IMG/VR virus record: IMGVR_UViG_2698536428_000002
Reading direction: 5' to 3' (one strand)
DNA length: 13,798 nt
Origin: a virus
Lineage: Duplodnaviria > Heunggongvirae > Uroviricota > Caudoviricetes
The notes under the pieces were generated by a model. The model searched no databases and had not been told where the DNA came from. It was given only the letters and a program-made list of their open reading frames with translations. Of this stretch, positions 5,640-13,798 are shown piece by piece (within the stretch, counting starts at the first letter, position 1; every line of letters begins with the position of its first letter). Made by a program: the position numbers and the translations under genes.

Positions 5640-6668
5640 TTATTTCACCTGTACCACCACAAACTCATCCGGATCCGGCAGCACCATCAGCGGAGCGGAC
5701 TGCGTCATGGTGAATTCACGGGCCGGATCGCCCACAGTCAGCCAGTGTTTCGGATAACGGGAAGAGGCCACCACACCTTCGGACAACGCCTGCGCATCCT
5801 GAATGGCACCATAGCAACGAATGCCCTCTGCTGCCGTATTCCCCAGGACCAGTGTGCCCTCCGGCAGATAACGTTTTTCGGTACCGTCCTCTGCCACATA
5901 AGACGTTTTCGCCACCACAATGGCCAGATCGCCGTAATACCCCTTGAAGGACACCACCGCCCCCAGGTCTTTCACTGCCGTTTCGAGTTGTGAATTTGAG
6001 CCGCGACGGGTATCCAGTTTTTCGCGGAACAGCTTAAAGCCATTCAGCAGACGCCAGACCGTACCGTCCATAATGGCGATATTCACAAGGCCGCTGGCCT
6101 GATCGCAGTAGAGGTCAATATCATGCGTCGGATCAAACGTATCACGGTCCTGCTCAGACCATTTTTTACCGTCAGCCTGCTCAATGTTATTTCCTTCAGA
6201 GCGCCCGAAATCCACCTCGACAGTATCAAACTGATCCCCTTCCATGGTGTATTTGCCATACAGCACGGCATTCACCGCCTGCATTTCTTCCACCTGGACA
6301 ATGGCGTGCTCTTCCTGTTTGAGGTTATCGGTAATGATACGCAGACGACGGTAGGCCGGGTCATTCAGCTGAGCCGGATCTTCACCAGGAAGGCGCTCAA
6401 CCGCCTGCTGGTAATTAAATTCGTGTTTCGGCTTGACGTAGCCCGGACGTAACACGCGGGTTTCACCACCACGATGACGCAGCACTTTTCCTTCAACAAC
6501 CGGGGAGACATAGGCTGCCACCGGCGTTTTTCCGGTAATTTTGTCCAGCATCACCTCTTCGGTGTGGAAATTCACCGTACGGCGGAAAAACAGCTCCAGA
6601 AACAGCGCACGGAATTTCACTTTTTGTTCGGTATAACCGAGTAACTGGCGGGTCGTAAACAATCCCAT
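5640..6668 (-). CDS. E: Major capsid protein (lambda gpE-like)
   Basis: 342 aa; motifs PGYVKPKHE, QVEEMQAVNAVLYGKYTM, KLDTRRGSNSQLETAVKDLG and PAREFTMTQSAPLMVLPDPDEFV all match lambda gpE. Confidence 0.97.
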   Translation of the reverse strand: MGLFTTRQLLGYTEQKVKFRALFLELFFRRTVNFHTEEVMLDKITGKTPVAAYVSPVVEGKVLRHRGGETRVLRPGYVKPKHEFNYQQAVERLPGEDPAQLNDPAYRRLRIITDNLKQEEHAIVQVEEMQAVNAVLYGKYTMEGDQFDTVEVDFGRSEGNNIEQADGKKWSEQDRDTFDPTHDIDLYCDQASGLVNIAIMDGTVWRLLNGFKLFREKLDTRRGSNSQLETAVKDLGAVVSFKGYYGDLAIVVAKTSYVAEDGTEKRYLPEGTLVLGNTAAEGIRCYGAIQDAQALSEGVVASSRYPKHWLTVGDPAREFTMTQSAPLMVLPDPDEFVVVQVK

Positions 6669-6725: not shown

Positions 6726-7073
6726 TTACGGCAGAGCCGCGTGACTCAGGGCTGTACCGGCAAAGGCATTTGCCTTTTTGTGTTCATCCACACTGTCAGG
6801 CCAGCGGATTGCCTCCGTCGCAAAGGTCCCCGACTTGTAATAGGTCAGCACCGTCTCTGTGCCTTCAAGCGGCAGTACCAGTATGCCAGCCGCACTACCG
6901 GCTTTCTGTCCATCCCAGACCACCAGTTTCCCGCTGGCTTCATCCAGCATCAGGGGCGTCAGAGCCGGTGTTGCCTGAGAAATCCCGCTGCTGCCTGTGG
7001 CGGTATGAGCCGGATCATTACCGGCAAAAATACGTACTTCCGCACGTTGTTCAGTGATGGTTTTCGTCACCAT
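6726..7073 (-). CDS. D: Head decoration protein (lambda gpD-like)
   Basis: 115 aa; DPAHTATG...TPLMLD...KLVVWDG...YKSGTF...KKANAFAGTA matches lambda gpD. Confidence 0.93.
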   Translation of the reverse strand: MVTKTITEQRAEVRIFAGNDPAHTATGSSGISQATPALTPLMLDEASGKLVVWDGQKAGSAAGILVLPLEGTETVLTYYKSGTFATEAIRWPDSVDEHKKANAFAGTALSHAALP

Positions 7074-7109: not shown

Positions 7110-7712
7110 TCATGGCATGGCCATGAGCATTTTCACGTCCGCATCACCGTCTGCCGACGTCTGTGACACGCCACCCTGCACGGCTGCCGGTGAATGGTTC
7201 GCCATGATGCGTTCAAACATGGCGGTTGTGGATGCAGAAACCGGTTCTGCTTTATCCGGCGATGAGGACAGAATGTCGCGGGCAGCCTCCACCGTCATTC
7301 CGGGAAACGCCGCCAGTTTTTCAGCCTGCGCCTCAGCCCCTTTTGCCTCATCCAGAGCCATAATCTGATCACGGAGTGAGGGTCCGGCATCCGCCTGCGG
7401 TGAAGCCGCCAGGATCGGGCGGGCTTTTTCCACCGTCATATCCGGCATCGCCGCCAGCGTTGCCGCCAGTTGTTCACGACCTTTAGCTTCTTCACACGCC
7501 ATAATGCGATCGGCTTCACTCTGCGTGGATGCCACCGGCTGCTGTGGTGCTGCCGCGGTCAGAATCGCCCGGGCCTGTTCAACGCTCATGCCCTGTTGTC
7601 CTGCCAGCATCGTGGCAAGGTGTTCACGTCCTTTCGCTTCCTGACACGCCAGGATCCCCATCACTCGCTGGTTCTCCTGCGCGGCAGCTTCCGTTGCAGT
7701 TAATTGCGGCAT
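7110..7712 (-). CDS. Nu3: Scaffolding protein Nu3-like, nested in-frame within the 3' end of C
   Basis: Internal in-frame ATG at 7712..7710 (Met302 of C) preceded by AGGAGG at 4 nt spacing. In lambda, Nu3 is likewise an in-frame internal start within C. Product would begin MPQLTATEAAAQENQRVMGILACQEAKGRE... Confidence 0.7.
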   Translation of the reverse strand: MPQLTATEAAAQENQRVMGILACQEAKGREHLATMLAGQQGMSVEQARAILTAAAPQQPVASTQSEADRIMACEEAKGREQLAATLAAMPDMTVEKARPILAASPQADAGPSLRDQIMALDEAKGAEAQAEKLAAFPGMTVEAARDILSSSPDKAEPVSASTTAMFERIMANHSPAAVQGGVSQTSADGDADVKMLMAMP

Positions 7713-8615
7713 AGTGCCTCCTGTATCATGTGTGTTCAGCGCCGCAGCCATCACGCTGATGGCATCCGACGCATTGATTAATTCATCCGCCAGCCCGGCC
7801 TCAATGCCGGACTGACCTTCAAAAACGGCGGCCTCTGTTCCCGTGACTGCATCAACAGACAGACCGGTATACATCGCCACTTTTTCGGCAAACATCCGGC
7901 GCGCCGCATCAATCCGCTGCTGCATGTCCTGGCGAACCTCTTCCGGCAACGCTTCAAACTGATTGCCATCCACCTTGTGCGCCCCTGAGTAAATCAGCGT
8001 GATATCCACACCGGCCTGCGCCAGATGACCGGCATAGCTGACATGGCTCATCATCACGCCAATGGAGCCGATACGGGATGTCTGGGTAACCAGCCGTCGG
8101 GAGCAGGCCGACGCCAGCAGCATGGCTGCAGAACAGGCCGTGTCATTGCACAGTGCCCAGACCGGCTTCTGCTGACGGAGGCGGTAAATCATGTCAGCAC
8201 AGTCAAACGCACCGGCGGCCTGCCCGCCCGGACTGTCAATGTCCAGCAGTACACCCCGCACCTGGCTATCCGCCATTGCCTGCTGAAGACAGGCGACAAT
8301 GCCGTCATAGCCTGTCATTCCGGAAAATGGCCGCATACCCCCCAGCCGGTGCACCAGCGTGCCTGTGACCGGCAGTACAGCAATACCGTTCACCACCCGG
8401 TAAACACGGGCCGGTCGTTTACCTCCGGCCATGTACTCGTCCGTTTCAGCCAGCATTCCGGGTGCATCAAGCTGTACCTGCTGTTGTGGTACCGAAAGAC
8501 TTGCTGCCCCCATCTCGCGCCCGAGCGCGCAAAAGAAAACCCGCGCATAGGCGGGCTCCAGAAGCAGCGGTTCATTGAATGCTGCTGCAATAATGTGTGA
8601 AAGATTACGTCTCAC
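7110..8615 (-). CDS. C: Capsid assembly protease / minor capsid protein (lambda gpC-like, ClpP/SppA family)
   Basis: 501 aa; N-terminus NEPLLLEPAYARVFFCAL, then NGIAVLPVTGTL, GAFDCADMI, KPVWALCND, SRRLVTQTSRIGSIGVMMSH and GVDITLIYSGAHKVDGN match lambda gpC. The C-terminal third is the scaffold (Nu3) region. Confidence 0.95.
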   Translation of the reverse strand: MRRNLSHIIAAAFNEPLLLEPAYARVFFCALGREMGAASLSVPQQQVQLDAPGMLAETDEYMAGGKRPARVYRVVNGIAVLPVTGTLVHRLGGMRPFSGMTGYDGIVACLQQAMADSQVRGVLLDIDSPGGQAAGAFDCADMIYRLRQQKPVWALCNDTACSAAMLLASACSRRLVTQTSRIGSIGVMMSHVSYAGHLAQAGVDITLIYSGAHKVDGNQFEALPEEVRQDMQQRIDAARRMFAEKVAMYTGLSVDAVTGTEAAVFEGQSGIEAGLADELINASDAISVMAAALNTHDTGGTMPQLTATEAAAQENQRVMGILACQEAKGREHLATMLAGQQGMSVEQARAILTAAAPQQPVASTQSEADRIMACEEAKGREQLAATLAAMPDMTVEKARPILAASPQADAGPSLRDQIMALDEAKGAEAQAEKLAAFPGMTVEAARDILSSSPDKAEPVSASTTAMFERIMANHSPAAVQGGVSQTSADGDADVKMLMAMP

Positions 8616-10197
8616 GTGGTGTTGTCTCCTCTTCCGGCCTGCGACTCTCCGCTATCTGCTGCTGATACGCCTGCGCTATCCACACCGGACGTGAGAGTCC
8701 GGCTTTTTCCCGCTCTGCAGATTCCCTGACCTGCTGGCGGAAAATGTCCTGATAATCCTCGCCCATCAGCGCCAGCTCTTTCTCATACGTGCTCAGTCCG
8801 GAATCAATACGCATCACCGATTCCTGAACCTCCTTGAGCCCGTCAATGGCCATTCTTCCGGCTCCAATCCACTCAGCCCGTGACCAGGCTGATCGCGCCT
8901 GATAAAAATCAAAACGTGCCCGTGGCGGACGAATAATCCCCCGAAGAAGTGCCTCTTCCAGCCAGCAGGAAAACATCTGCGTGGCCAGCCGGGCCGCAAT
9001 AAATTTTCGCCGCCCCATAAAATAGCGCCACGACTCATTGGCGGAGGCGCGGGCACTTGAGTAACTGACCTTCGAGTAATCACGGGACAACTGTTCGTAG
9101 GAAACGCCAAGACCGGCGGCGATATACCGCAGCAGCGCCTGTTCAAGCGCCGAAAATCCATTGTCTGAATCCTGCGCGGTCTGAAGTTTCAGATCATCAC
9201 CGGGGAAAAGGTGCGGAATTTTGACACCGCCCAGCGTCACGCTATTCGTGTCATACCAGGTGGAGAACTTATCCAGAATATTAATAAGCGGATTATCCTT
9301 CTGCCCCTGCGGCGCACCGGCGATATATTCAAAGGCCTTTTCGGTATCAAGGTCACTTTCAATCGTCGCTGCATACATCGCCTTCACTATGGCCGACTGA
9401 AGCTGTGTTGCCTGCAGGGAATCCAGCATCTTCAGCCGTTCCATAACGCTGTAAAACTGATTGGCTCCACGGGTCTGCCCGTCCTCCACCGGCTCGAAAA
9501 TATGCAGCATGGCCGGACGCCCGGTGGGAAGTTCACGCGGGATCCGTTCCCATCGTCCACTCCCGGAGCGAGGAAAATCATCCTCACAGATATGGTACGC
9601 AACGGCACGGCCATATCGATCAACCTCCACACCGGCCCGCAGAAAACGGTTCCCGATACCGTGTCCTGGCGTGTCCACCCGTTTCGGACTCACGGCTTTA
9701 AAACGCGTACGAAACAGTTGCGTGCTCTCCGTATCCCAGACCGGCTGCACAAAGATTTCGCCGTTAAACGCATGAACGCCCACACCTTCACGGATAAATT
9801 CCGTAAACGTGCGTTTCCCTTCCACGTCGATCTCACCAAACATCCCTTCTGCGTATTCTGACCAGGCCGCCTCCACCTCATCGACAAAACTTTTTGCCGC
9901 GGTCTCCCGCATCCCCAGCCAGCGCCAGTTCGGACGGTAGCTAATCAGAAACATATGCCCGACAATGTGATCCTTATGCAGGGCCACCGCATTGGCCGCT
10001 ATTCCGTTATTGCGCACCAGATCATCTGCACGGGCATTCCCCAGACGCAACGCGGGCAGCAGGGCCGCATCGGCACTCTGCGAGGGTGGCAACCACTCTG
10101 CCATTTGCCCGCCAAATCCTGCGCCGCCCCCGTTGTAGCTTAGGCTCTCCCGAAGCGGAACGCCGTTCACATCAATCAGGACAGGCGTTCGTTTCAT
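8605..10197 (-). CDS. B: Portal protein (lambda gpB-like)
   Basis: 530 aa; GGGAGFGGQ, GNARADDLVRNNG, FEPVEDGQTRGAN, LQSAIVKAMYAATIES, LLRYIAAGLGVSYEQLSR and GRMAIDGLKEVQE match lambda gpB. Its ATG overlaps the W stop (ATGA). Confidence 0.97.
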   Translation of the reverse strand: MKRTPVLIDVNGVPLRESLSYNGGGAGFGGQMAEWLPPSQSADAALLPALRLGNARADDLVRNNGIAANAVALHKDHIVGHMFLISYRPNWRWLGMRETAAKSFVDEVEAAWSEYAEGMFGEIDVEGKRTFTEFIREGVGVHAFNGEIFVQPVWDTESTQLFRTRFKAVSPKRVDTPGHGIGNRFLRAGVEVDRYGRAVAYHICEDDFPRSGSGRWERIPRELPTGRPAMLHIFEPVEDGQTRGANQFYSVMERLKMLDSLQATQLQSAIVKAMYAATIESDLDTEKAFEYIAGAPQGQKDNPLINILDKFSTWYDTNSVTLGGVKIPHLFPGDDLKLQTAQDSDNGFSALEQALLRYIAAGLGVSYEQLSRDYSKVSYSSARASANESWRYFMGRRKFIAARLATQMFSCWLEEALLRGIIRPPRARFDFYQARSAWSRAEWIGAGRMAIDGLKEVQESVMRIDSGLSTYEKELALMGEDYQDIFRQQVRESAEREKAGLSRPVWIAQAYQQQIAESRRPEEETTPRET

Positions 10198-10400
10198 AAC
10201 CTCACTCCCAGCGGACGACGGCGACGGCGGGTTGTCCCCAGTACCGACTCCGCATCATTGATCGCCCGGTTAAGCTCATCCAGAGAAGCTGCCGTATATT
10301 CAATTCTGCGACCATCTTTCTGGACAGACACCACCCGTTTACCGGTTAATAAATCAAGGCGCGCCTGACGCAGCGCCTGCAGTTCAGCGACTGTAACCAT
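10194..10400 (-). CDS. W: Head-tail joining / head completion protein (lambda gpW-like)
   Basis: 68 aa; ...LTGKRVVSVQKDGRRIEYTAASLDELNRAI... matches lambda gpW ([22 protein letters not shown]). Start overlaps the 3' end of A. Confidence 0.9.
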   Translation of the reverse strand: MVTVAELQALRQARLDLLTGKRVVSVQKDGRRIEYTAASLDELNRAINDAESVLGTTRRRRRPLGVRL

Positions 10401-12312
10401 TCACTCCTCCGGACAGCTTCGCTGCCAGTTCTTTAAGGGTTGGCCGGGTCGTCTCTTCTTCCCGGGATTTTGCCAGTACAGCCAGATCAAGCTGCCAGCG
10501 TTGCACGGACACACGTAATGCCGCGTAGGCATACACCAGGCAGTCCAGCGCTTCGTTACGCCGCTTTTTGTTATCCCACAGCAGACGCATCTTTCCTTTT
10601 TCCCACTTCTCCACAAGCTCTTCCGCCACCAGTTGCTGCGCCTCTGTCTGCGAAAAAATCTCCGGATCATCAGGAAAACGGATGGCATACGACGTGGCTT
10701 CATCCGCAGGCGTGGGATCGGCTTTCATACGGGCATAGAGAATTTCTTTTGCGGTGTCCGTCCCCACTTCGCACAGATACACGCCCCGCTGATTGCGGGT
10801 TTTTGGCATGGTGATCACCGGCTTGCCATAAACAGATGCACCTTTTACCGGCAGCACCCGGAAAACACCGTGTTTTTTTGACCTCTGATAGACAATTTCG
10901 CCATCGATCCCCCCGGTGTCCCAGCAGACACGGGAAATGGTCATTTCGGTTCCGTCTGCATGGCGGTATTTTTTGTTGATCGCCACATCCACACGTAACA
11001 GCGTCTCTTCCTCATCGGGACGCCCCATAATGATGATTTTATCCACCAGAAAGGCTTCCTCTCCCGGAGCCCATCCCCAGACATACATCTCAAAACGGTT
11101 TCGCTGCGAGTCAATGCCCGCCGTCAGATAAACCACCCGGGCAGGCACCGCCGCCGTGTAACGCACAACCTTATCCATCAGTACCTGGTGATCGAGTTTT
11201 TCGCCCACGGCCTCTTCCCAGGTCTCGCCCAGCGTGGTGTTCACAAATGTTTTCAGGCCGTTGGGATCTTTCAGTGCATCCAGCCAGTCATAGACAATCT
11301 GTACCCAGGTGGTGAACGGACTGTACGCCGTCCAGATATGGAATGTGATGGAGCGCGGCGGCGGAATTTCATTACCCGCAGCGCTGAAAAACGTCAGGCC
11401 GTCACGGGTCCACATGCCCGTGTTTTCACAGATCCACCGCCCGTTGCTCTGGTCAAGATCAGACTGATGGATCACGCAGCCATGATGTTCACAGAGGTAG
11501 AAAACACTTTCTGGACTGTCCTTCTCCCATTTAAGGCCAAAAGGCGTGGACTCATCGCCAAATTTCAGATACTGCGCCTCCCCACAGTGTGGGCAGGGCA
11601 CATAAAAACGCATGAAATGCGCCGACTCGTTGGCCGCTTTTTCGATCTGGCAGGAGCCTTTTATTTTAGGCGTCGAGCCGCGAATGGATTTTGGCCATAC
11701 CGAGCCCTCAATACGCTTATCCCCCAGCAGGGTTGGCGAGCCCTCTTTTTCGACATCCGGCTCGAACGAGGAAAGTTCGTCATAGCAGACCACGTCCACG
11801 GATTTTTCACGGTAGTTTTTTGCTGCCGCACCACCCAGGCACCAGAAGCCCACCCCCGATGAAAAGCGTTTCAGCGTGAGAGTATTGTCACGATGTTTAC
11901 GACCCAGCCACGGGGAAAGATCTTTCAGGCATGGCACGTCCCGAATCGTCGCCTCCACGTGAGACTTCATAAAATCTTCAGCGGCAGAATCCGTGGGCTG
12001 AAAAAGCAGACTGTTTCGGGATTTATGCTCAATAAAATACCCGGCGACTCCCAGCAACATCTTTGTATAGCCAACACGGGCAGATTTAATCAGATTAACA
12101 GTGCGGATCTGATCATTCCCCATACTGTTCATGATGGCGATCTGGAACGGCAGCGTTTTCCATTCGCCGTCACCGTATGAGGATTCTTTCGGCAGATAAT
12201 AATACTGGTCAGCCCATTCAACTGCCGTCATCGGTACAACCCTGACCAGAGGCTGCAGCGCAACCGAAACGGCGGCCACCATATTATTCAGTTGTTGCTC
12301 TGATATATTCAT
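10384..12312 (-). CDS. A: Terminase large subunit (lambda gpA-like)
   Basis: Very high similarity to lambda gpA along the whole length: TAVEWAD..YYLPKES, KSARVGYTKMLLGV (Walker A), NYREKSVDVVCYDEL, GSPTLLGDKRIEGSVWPKSIRGSTPK, TFVNTTLGETWE, WDTGGID, KKRRNEALDC. Start set at the MNISEQQ methionine (12312) by alignment to the lambda N-terminus MNISNSQ; the track ORF begins 19 codons further upstream at 12369. Confidence 0.96.
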   Translation of the reverse strand: MNISEQQLNNMVAAVSVALQPLVRVVPMTAVEWADQYYYLPKESSYGDGEWKTLPFQIAIMNSMGNDQIRTVNLIKSARVGYTKMLLGVAGYFIEHKSRNSLLFQPTDSAAEDFMKSHVEATIRDVPCLKDLSPWLGRKHRDNTLTLKRFSSGVGFWCLGGAAAKNYREKSVDVVCYDELSSFEPDVEKEGSPTLLGDKRIEGSVWPKSIRGSTPKIKGSCQIEKAANESAHFMRFYVPCPHCGEAQYLKFGDESTPFGLKWEKDSPESVFYLCEHHGCVIHQSDLDQSNGRWICENTGMWTRDGLTFFSAAGNEIPPPRSITFHIWTAYSPFTTWVQIVYDWLDALKDPNGLKTFVNTTLGETWEEAVGEKLDHQVLMDKVVRYTAAVPARVVYLTAGIDSQRNRFEMYVWGWAPGEEAFLVDKIIIMGRPDEEETLLRVDVAINKKYRHADGTEMTISRVCWDTGGIDGEIVYQRSKKHGVFRVLPVKGASVYGKPVITMPKTRNQRGVYLCEVGTDTAKEILYARMKADPTPADEATSYAIRFPDDPEIFSQTEAQQLVAEELVEKWEKGKMRLLWDNKKRRNEALDCLVYAYAALRVSVQRWQLDLAVLAKSREEETTRPTLKELAAKLSGGVNGYSR

Positions 12313-12790
12313 CGAGTAAATCCGGTAATTTATCCCCCGCCCGCGCACACTGATTTGCCCCCTTCGCAATAAGGGTTTTCAGATGGTCAAGATGGCGCGG
12401 TGTTAAATCAGGAAACTGTCGCTGCATGGATAACGGAATGGAATCAAGCGTACTGGACAATGCCATCGCCAGTTTGCTGAGGGCGAAAACGCAGAAGTCT
12501 GAATCGATGAGCTTACCTTCGGTTACCTGATTTTTAAGTTTTTGAGCTACAGCCTGTTCTTCTGTCAGTTCAGCTCTGGCCCGAAGCAGCCTTTCCTCCA
12601 GTTCTCCCCCGTCATCAGGTGTTCTCTGATTGTGTTGTCGCCGCTCGCGATCTATCTCCAGTACAGTTTTAACGTCATATAAAACTTCCCTCCCCCGACG
12701 TTCAACAGGAGGAACGCCCCATTTATCAAATGCCTGAACAGAGATACCGATGGAGGAGGCCATATCACTTTTATTCAATAAAAAGGCCAT
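12284..12790 (-). CDS. Nu1: Terminase small subunit (lambda gpNu1-like) with divergent N-terminal DNA-binding domain
   Basis: C-terminal half (FCVFALSKLAMALSSTLDSIPLSMQRQFPDLTPRHLDHLK...LLDEYI) matches lambda Nu1; the N-terminal ~60 aa are only weakly similar. Start chosen at the ATG at 12790 (MAFLLNKSD...) because GGAG sits 5 nt upstream and this leaves the putative cosB repeats outside the ORF. In-frame alternatives at 12808 and 12895 are possible. 3' end overlaps the start of A as in lambda. Confidence 0.82.
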   Translation of the reverse strand: MAFLLNKSDMASSIGISVQAFDKWGVPPVERRGREVLYDVKTVLEIDRERRQHNQRTPDDGGELEERLLRARAELTEEQAVAQKLKNQVTEGKLIDSDFCVFALSKLAMALSSTLDSIPLSMQRQFPDLTPRHLDHLKTLIAKGANQCARAGDKLPDLLDEYIRATTE

Positions 12791-12820
12791 CTCCTCTCCA
12801 TAAGTCATCGATAAAAAGCG

Positions 12821-12968
12821 AAACAACAACCATGTGTTTTTGCAAAACCATTTGATATCATTGATATTTTTCGCATTGACGACATCAAAACACATCGTAA
12901 GGTTGTTGTATTTATTTTATTTTCACCTTACTTATCAATTAGATATACAAAACAATTAAACAACAACC
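12821..12968 (-). repeat. Putative cosB: three copies of GGTTGTTGTTT-like element (two direct, one inverted) flanking an AT-rich IHF-like segment
   Basis: Plus strand has AAACAACAACC at 12821..12831 and 12958..12968, and inverted GGTTGTTG at 12901..12908. AT-rich DNA with TATCAA motifs lies between the two upstream copies. The layout mirrors lambda cosB (R3, I1, R2 inverted, R1) between cosN and Nu1, though the repeat sequence differs from the lambda CGTTTCC-type R sites. Confidence 0.5.
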
Positions 12969-13385: not shown

Positions 13386-13798
13386 TTATCTGAGGCATTG
13401 CTCACGAATGTATAGCTGTGCCCCTTCCAGCTGCTTCTGCATTGTCATCAACCGTTCTCTGAGGATGAAATAATCCCGTTCAGCGGCGTCTGCCAGTCTG
13501 GGGCCGGTTGCATTATCCACGCCGGAGGTGGTGGGGGCTTCACGCACGGAGCCTGGACAGGTGGCGTTGATCCGCAGGCGCTTACGACCAGCGGCAACGT
13601 CAGCGCGAAGAGTTTCATTTTCAGCTCTCGCATCGGCTAATTCCCTCGAGTATTTTGCATCGAGCGCAGCAACATCGCGCTGGCGCACCTGCATATCAGT
13701 AATGGTTGCGTTCGCCAGCTTCAGTTCACTGGCTTTGTTATCGCGCTGCGCTTTGTAGGTAATCGCGTTATCACGGTAATGGTCTGTTGCCATCCACA
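13386..13798 (-). CDS. Rz: Inner-membrane spanin (lambda Rz-like), 5' end truncated by window end
   Basis: Frame is open to the window edge. ...[75 protein letters not shown]...[35 protein letters not shown] matches lambda Rz. The N-terminal transmembrane segment lies outside the window. Confidence 0.92.
13448..13633 (-). CDS. Rz1: Outer-membrane spanin lipoprotein (lambda Rz1-like), embedded in +1 frame within Rz
   Basis: 61 aa; [61 protein letters not shown]. Has a lipobox (VSAC) and proline-rich core, and is near-identical to lambda Rz1 (…[32 protein letters not shown]). Confidence 0.9.

Follow-up and report, generated by a model that had tools for sequence, protein, structure and literature searches.

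Here we describe a head gene in a 13,798-nucleotide stretch of viral DNA (hereafter the window; IMG/VR record IMGVR_UViG_2698536428_000002, class Caudoviricetes) that is homologous to the protease gene C of phage lambda and contains three diverged tandem copies of a 41–45-amino-acid (aa) unit in the C-terminal third of its 501-aa product. One reading frame is predicted to give two products with a common C terminus: an S49 prohead protease of 501 aa and a scaffold of 200 aa that would start from an internal Shine-Dalgarno (SD) sequence and ATG (Table 1). Judged from its sequence, the gene corresponds to the lambda C/Nu3 pair in its phage 21-type form, and the repeated unit appears to be the conserved core of lambda Nu3, which is present there once. 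The triplication as such is already known, as it was annotated in phage 21 in the 1990s in the feature table of GenBank M81255.

The identity of the gene is supported at several levels. The protein is 54% identical to lambda C, and the PHROG profile phrog_53 ('head maturation protease') matches it with E = 1.8e-225. Its peptidase domain, recognized by Pfam, is also matched by the TIGR00706 SppA model, with a score under the curated cut-off. Ser162 (in 'ACSAA') is aligned with Ser166 of lambda C (in 'NCSAG'), which Medina et al. are said to have identified in 2010 as the catalytic residue. The gene lies between the portal gene and the decoration and major-capsid genes, as expected for a C-type protease. 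The S49 domain, the identity to lambda C and this portal-to-capsid position all agree with the original prediction, an earlier reading of the window made without database searches, which had called the gene a lambda C homologue. Pfam and NCBIfam contain no model for the repeat; the S49 domain is the sole domain that they recognize, with nothing in the last 200 residues.

Repeat units and predicted nested start

A gapless seed-extension repeat search finds one family of direct repeats in the DNA, with three 97-nucleotide (nt) copies at 7264–7360, 7405–7501 and 7555–7651. The copies are 64–70% identical and recur at intervals of 141 and 150 nt. Tandem Repeats Finder, run on the whole window, reports no repeat, because the copies are too diverged. 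At the protein level, the units (Tri1, Tri2 and Tri3) score 73–106 against each other in local BLOSUM62 alignments, compared with a mean of about 21 (standard deviation about 4) and a maximum of 45 in 2000 shuffles (z = 12.6–19.9). The single unit of lambda scores 87–111 against each of the three, and Tri1 is the unit closest to the lambda copy (score 111, z = 20.3). The profile phrog_8399 ('head scaffolding protein', 131 positions) matches the 200-aa scaffold in three stretches.

Significant self-similarity is thus found in both DNA and protein, and the original prediction of three tandem copies of the lambda Nu3 unit in the scaffold region of C is borne out. Its span for the repeat, 7236–7676, is accurate and corresponds to aa 314–460. 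Its period of about 47 aa (about 141 base pairs) holds between Tri2 and Tri3 (47 aa) but not between Tri1 and Tri2 (50–53 aa), because Tri1 has three inserted residues ('GIL') and its linker is longer. The motif that it wrote for the unit is exact for Tri2 and only approximate for Tri1 and Tri3.

Table 1 Features of the protease/scaffold gene and its neighbours in the window (aa numbering refers to the 501-aa protein)
Feature	Position	Strand	Details
Head protease/scaffold gene, homologue of lambda C and phage 21 gene 5	7110-8615	minus	501 aa, GTG start
Peptidase S49 (SppA/ClpP-like) domain, aa 146-293	7737-8180	minus	Pfam PF01343, E = 1.6e-35
Internal Shine-Dalgarno sequence AGGAGG	7717-7722	minus	4 nt upstream of ATG 7712; also encodes Gly-Gly in the C frame
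Nested in-frame open reading frame (predicted scaffold), homologue of lambda Nu3 and phage 21 gene 6	7110-7712	minus	200 aa, 20.7 kDa, isoelectric point (pI) 4.7, from Met302
Tri1 unit, aa 314-358, ENQRVMGILACQEAKGREHLATMLAGQQGMSVEQARAILTAAAPQ	7542-7676	minus	Hidden Markov model (HMM) match 78 bits
Tri2 unit, aa 367-407, EADRIMACEEAKGREQLAATLAAMPDMTVEKARPILAASPQ	7395-7517	minus	HMM match 84.5 bits
Tri3 unit, aa 414-454, LRDQIMALDEAKGAEAQAEKLAAFPGMTVEAARDILSSSPD	7254-7376	minus	HMM match 80.7 bits
Acidic C-terminal tail, aa 463-501	7113-7229	minus	Conserved; common to lambda ('LDRLM...LLNTPV')
Portal gene, lambda B homologue, presumed scaffold partner	8605-10197	minus	61% identity to lambda B over 521 aa
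Major capsid protein gene, lambda E homologue, presumed scaffold partner	5640-6668	minus	62% identity to lambda E
Decoration protein gene	6726-7073	minus	
W	10194-10400	minus	
A	10384-12369	minus	
Nu1-like small terminase	12284-12895	minus	
Rz	13386-13793	minus	
FI, FII, Z, tail tube protein V, T	downstream of major capsid gene	minus	

After Tri3 comes the acidic tail, which starts with 'FERIMA' (aa 467–472, 7200–7217) and ends with 'LMAMP'. It is conserved from lambda to phage 21, with F166 and M170 almost invariant. The 'FERIMA' start resembles helix 1 of the unit, and its lambda counterpart is 'LDRLM'. This segment may be the remnant of a further unit copy, or a capping helix.

The same three segments are marked in the phage 21 head-gene sequence, the source of which we take to be Smith & Feiss (Gene, 1993). 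GenBank M81255.1 lists gene 5, likewise of 1506 nt, and nested in it gene 6 (603 nt), for which a separate ribosome-binding site is given. The record also names three repeat_region features 'Tri1 box', 'Tri box' and 'Tri3 box' and describes them as 'function unknown; putative'. Transferred to window coordinates, the boxes lie at 7542–7645 (Tri1), 7395–7505 (Tri) and 7251–7364 (Tri3) and coincide with the units that we delimited independently, so the novelty implied by the original prediction does not hold. The complete phage 21 genome of 2021 (OL657228.1) labels the pair 'capsid protease/scaffolding protein' and 'scaffolding protein'. Full-text literature searches, the texts of which did not include the phage 21 head-gene paper, found no paper on the Tri boxes or on domain mapping of Nu3.

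The window gene and phage 21 genes 5/6 are alike in the 501-aa product, the nested 200-aa open reading frame (ORF), the position of the ribosome-binding site and the three repeat boxes, and they are 95.3% identical in nucleotides over the full 1506 nt. Apart from the overall divergence of about 5%, they differ in Tri3, which is locally far more diverged: the aa identity is 93% for Tri1, 93% for Tri2 and 75.6% for Tri3, and the synonymous divergence (dS) is 0.79 in Tri3 versus 0.06–0.17 in the rest of the gene. The Tri3 patch looks like a small recombinational mosaic within the scaffold gene. Two matches to a 'CII binding site' pattern (ttgynnnnnnttgy; 1851–1864 and 2085–2098 of the compared OL657228 segment, approximately 7460–7473 and 7694–7707 of the window), which the phage 21 genome record annotates within the scaffold gene, were set aside as simple pattern matches on the opposite strand that probably arose by chance and are unsupported here.

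The internal SD sequence and ATG, together with the 200-aa in-frame ORF that they open, are present as the original prediction described them. Met302 is aligned with Met309 of lambda, and an element of the form GGAGG, AGGAG or AAGAGGA is found at equal spacing before the homologous Met in lambda, phage 21, E. albertii, Trabulsiella, Providencia and a four-copy lineage described below. The amino acids flanking the nested start differ among these lineages, whereas the SD sequence and the ATG are kept. In the phage 21 records, the ribosome-binding site is annotated at this same place, and the coding sequence of gene 6 is of identical extent.

The lambda product from Met309 comprises 131 aa with a computed mass of 13.4 kDa, which presumably agrees with the size of purified gpNu3. 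RefSeq lambda (NC_001416) gives an older version of nu3 with 201 aa from 5132, a start inside the protease domain; the conserved SD sequence and ATG stand at Met309 instead. PHROGs holds both versions of Nu3, as the separate families 8940 and 8399. The original comparison of about 200 aa here with about 131 aa in lambda therefore fits the Met309 product with its conserved SD sequence, but not the RefSeq annotation. The overlap of C and Nu3 in lambda is established genetics, according to the passage in PMC8508860 that cites Shaw & Murialdo 1980.

Lambda C/Nu3 shares with the window gene the S49 protease, the gene position, the signals of an in-frame nested start with an SD sequence at the aligned Met, the core unit and the C-terminal tail. 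By contrast, lambda has a single unit after a low-complexity leader of about 50 aa, a C protein of 439 aa (501 aa here) and a Nu3 of 131 aa (200 aa here). The leader that precedes the unit is about 50 aa long and rich in Ser, Thr, Ala and Gln in lambda and phi80; it has 12–14 aa in all multi-copy forms and about 12 aa in the window (7677–7712). The 62-aa difference in the length of C is consequently not that of two units: two extra units add about 100 aa, and the shorter leader offsets part of this gain. The original prediction had the single lambda copy, its sequence and the length of lambda C right. It also attributed the longer C and Nu3 to the expansion, which holds for the two extra units but leaves out the shortening of the leader.

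Age, selection and copy number

Among 14 three-unit proteins, orthologous units have mean identities between genomes of 73% (Tri1), 65% (Tri2) and 59% (Tri3), whereas paralogous units within one genome are 48–56% identical. Since orthologous units are more alike than paralogous ones, the triplication must have preceded the split of these phages, without later homogenization of its copies. The comparison thus indicates an old in-frame tandem duplication.

Codons were compared between the window and phage 21, another E. coli prophage, Trabulsiella and Providencia. The ratio of nonsynonymous to synonymous divergence (dN/dS) is 0.04–0.48 in every unit with estimable dS (for Tri1 against Providencia, dS is saturated and gives no value), similar to that of the protease domain (0.07–0.16). 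The linkers are only 0–50% identical in aa at the Trabulsiella/Providencia distance. Low dN/dS in the units combined with fast linkers argues that all three copies are kept as functional modules on freely evolving linkers; all three units are thus under purifying selection.

The three-unit arrangement is widespread. Of 5426 complete E. coli genomes, 1870 have a match to the 603-nt scaffold segment, 1867 of them with at least 80% coverage, and the segment occurs in up to five places per genome. Full-length three-unit genes are also found in Shigella flexneri, E. albertii, Trabulsiella guamensis (71% aa identity) and Providencia alcalifaciens (61%), and among phages in phage 21, PhiR12, ev017 and Salmonella phage Gifsy-1 (498 aa). 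Being long annotated and present in about a third of the complete E. coli genomes, the feature is an ordinary one.

We give next to no credence to the notion that the repeat arose by recent duplication or faulty assembly, or that it is a functionless oddity of a decaying prophage. Mis-assembly can create tandem repeats, and some relatives (P0013, P0017, P0021 and P0093) carry internal deletions. However, the DNA copies have retained only the limited identity given above, the arrangement is found in viable phages, in the 1867 E. coli genomes and in Trabulsiella and Providencia, and purifying selection acts on all units. Copy divergence, breadth of occurrence and selection rule out a recent duplication or an assembly artefact.

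Copy number was surveyed by comparing the whole protein with 1.84 billion cluster representatives (50%-identity clusters) and scanning the best 149 of 31,535 homologues with a small unit HMM. One unit is found in 90 of these 149 representatives, three in 1 (P0094, 505 aa) and none detectable in 58, many of which are truncated proteins. The phi80 scaffold also has one unit. With 90 of the 149 representatives and phi80 at one unit, a single copy is the usual state, and the triplication marks one enterobacterial clade. The search for scaffold homologues returned mostly fragments, and copies were counted only where the C terminus is complete.

Forms with other copy numbers exist. E. coli STEC309 (NZ_CP041435.1) has, within a head module that is intact, a four-unit gene of 538 aa (WP_096934546.1), the lineage of which is present in 104 of the 5426 complete E. 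coli genomes (~2%). The four-unit gene resembles the window gene in gene family, head-module context, unit and nested SD sequence with ATG. It differs in having four units, of which units 2–4 form a 138-nt repeat with 76–78% nt identity and are much more similar to each other than the units of the window are; its scaffold region is only about 45% identical to that of the window. P0022 is a rare two-unit form with a clean in-register hybrid of Tri1 and Tri2 ('...GMSVEQAR' joined to 'PILAASPQ...'), the signature of unequal recombination between units. In P0013/P0014, P0017, P0021 and P0093, partial in-frame deletions remove part of Tri2, or the whole stretch from the protease end to Tri2. Comparison of these genes indicates that copy number still shifts occasionally by in-register recombination, giving two- and four-copy variants. 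In the searched literature we found no earlier description of the four-copy lineage, nor of the long-standing conservation of each unit at its own position.

Predicted fold and possible role of the unit

The AlphaFold2 (AF2) model of a single unit (Tri2, with an alignment of 27 units) is a compact three-helix module with a predicted local distance difference test (pLDDT) score of 86.5 and a predicted template modelling (pTM) score of 0.66. In the model of the 200-aa scaffold (22-sequence alignment), each unit has three helices with pLDDT 74–81, and the linkers and tail have low pLDDT, including a low-confidence helix at Nu3 residues 161–172 of the tail. With a pTM of 0.27, this model does not define how the units are placed relative to one another, and the modelled scaffold as a whole looks like beads on a string. 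A sequence search of the PDB with the 200-aa scaffold gave no match at E ≤ 1. A Foldseek search of the PDB with the whole-Nu3 model gave only noise (E ≥ 1.4), as expected from the pTM of 0.27.

These models bear on the improbable case that the units are a spacer or ruler, or a protease substrate, with the distance from protease to tail being what matters and copy number tuning it. The low-complexity leader of about 50 aa in single-copy forms (lambda and phi80), which multi-copy forms do not have, suggests some length compensation, and natural copy number ranges from 1 to 4. However, the units are confidently predicted as folded modules, they show strong position-specific conservation and a dN/dS well under 1 next to linkers that are free to evolve, and the total scaffold length is not constant across copy-number forms (131, ~138, 191–202 and 236 aa).

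In lambda, Nu3 interacts with itself, C, B and E (PMC3224144); it is an internal scaffold that is required for portal incorporation and is removed by C (PMC3224144, PMC12617516). We consider it highly probable that the window encodes a phage 21-type C/Nu3 with a triplicated Nu3 core module. The module would serve as the contact unit of the scaffold and make protein–protein contacts, through which the scaffold and the protease with the same tail would co-assemble with the major capsid protein and the portal inside the prohead. The protease would afterwards degrade the scaffold. With its three flexibly linked modules, the phage 21-type scaffold would be longer than that of lambda and trivalent instead of monovalent, the modules taking the place of the long disordered leader of lambda. 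Capsid size would be unchanged and the T=7 shell the same, because the capsid (62%) and portal (61%) proteins are colinear with those of lambda; the capsid protein has 342 aa compared with 341 aa in lambda E, with one gap. If the triplication has an effect, avidity, reach or stoichiometry would change; the original prediction likewise suggested that the expansion may alter stoichiometry or capsid interaction.

Several points weigh against this explanation. The 200-aa product is predicted from sequence signals and from the phage 21 annotation. The binding partner of the unit, be it the capsid protein, the portal or the unit itself, is inferred, and neither our analysis nor the searched literature assigns one. 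The conserved acidic tail after Tri3 could be the real capsid-binding element, with the units then having another role. The two-copy and partly deleted forms may be in decaying prophages, and are no proof that fewer copies work.

A possible but clearly less likely explanation is that the Tri units are self-association modules that build the core of the scaffold, with the acidic tail docking on the capsid protein; triplication would then alter the networking between scaffold molecules and not the contacts with the capsid. The extreme C terminus is the part that binds the capsid in herpesvirus and P2-type scaffolds, and the tail conserved from lambda to phage 21 with its two near-invariant residues is in keeping with such a role. 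The units are near-neutral to acidic (pI 4.4–6.9), unlike the coat-binding helix-turn-helix of P22, which is basic. Self-association of lambda Nu3 (PMC3224144) and the scaffold role of the C-terminal domain of P2 gpO (PMC7552001) fit the same explanation. The tail, however, is much less conserved than the units at the Trabulsiella/Providencia distance (33–36% versus 49–82% aa identity). The data disfavour a spacer function and do not separate contact modules from self-association modules.

Other scaffold systems offer functional parallels. In P2 gpO and herpesvirus UL26/UL26.5, the protease is brought in by a shared scaffold part (PMC7552001), a functional analogy to what is proposed here. The PDB sequence search and Foldseek detected no sequence or fold relationship between the scaffold part in the window and the P2 gpO/herpesvirus type. 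gpO is not among the Pfam, PHROG or NCBIfam matches of the gene, these being general scans and not a test aimed at gpO homology. We know of no tandem module repeat in P2 gpO or in herpesvirus protease-scaffold proteins. The scaffolds of P22, phi29 and 80alpha are similar in having a small helical module, presumably for capsid contact, at the C-terminal end of a flexible scaffold. By contrast with their helix-turn-helix, the Tri unit is predicted to have three helices and is not basic, and the searches gave no significant match of the Tri unit to any solved structure, coat-binding domains included.

A tentative extension of the contact-unit explanation is that these genes form a natural series of one three-helix module, with 1 copy in lambda and phi80, 2 in rare forms, 3 in phage 21 and Gifsy-1 and 4 in STEC309, the capsid and portal proteins being colinear throughout and copy number acting as scaffold valency. 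If copy number does set valency, it would also set the number of scaffold molecules per T=7 prohead, or the efficiency of portal or protease recruitment, and the series would be a ready-made system for dissecting the contacts between lambda-type scaffold and shell. The series could in any event aid experiments on the partner of the module and on the structure of lambda-type scaffolds. The triplication alone matters little: GenBank has listed it ever since the head genes of phage 21 were deposited, and about a third of the complete E. coli genomes carry it. To it we add the usual, probably ancestral single-copy state, the age of the triplication, per-unit purifying selection, the predicted fold, the conserved signals of the nested start and a stable four-copy lineage. 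The lambda-type scaffold is thereby predicted to have as its conserved core a discrete module of about 40 aa that can fold, and one to four copies of this module are tolerated in nature alongside essentially the same capsid protein.

Gene neighbourhood and annotation

The ORF list and homology identify the window as a lambda-like late operon of an E. coli prophage type, with all genes on the minus strand and a gene order that matches Nu1-A-W-B-C/Nu3-D-E-FI-FII-Z-V-T. The start of the protease/scaffold gene overlaps the end of the portal gene by 11 nt. The whole window is 97–98% identical to Escherichia phages of the PhiR12 series, the nearest deposited phages, and the gene itself is 99.8% identical in nucleotides to that of phage PhiR12_1. 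The scaffold segment is 100% identical to that of a prophage of E. coli STEC2018-607.

RefSeq E. coli genomes call the gene 'S49 family peptidase' only, and the nested scaffold gene is not called; automatic calls of this kind hold a lesson for annotation. Certain phage records name the entire gene 'head-tail preconnector protein Nu3'. Among the relatives, P0099 (844 aa) is an apparent portal–protease fusion in which the match to C begins at residue 411, and the PHROG 'portal protein' profile phrog_21 runs on into the S49 and scaffold region.

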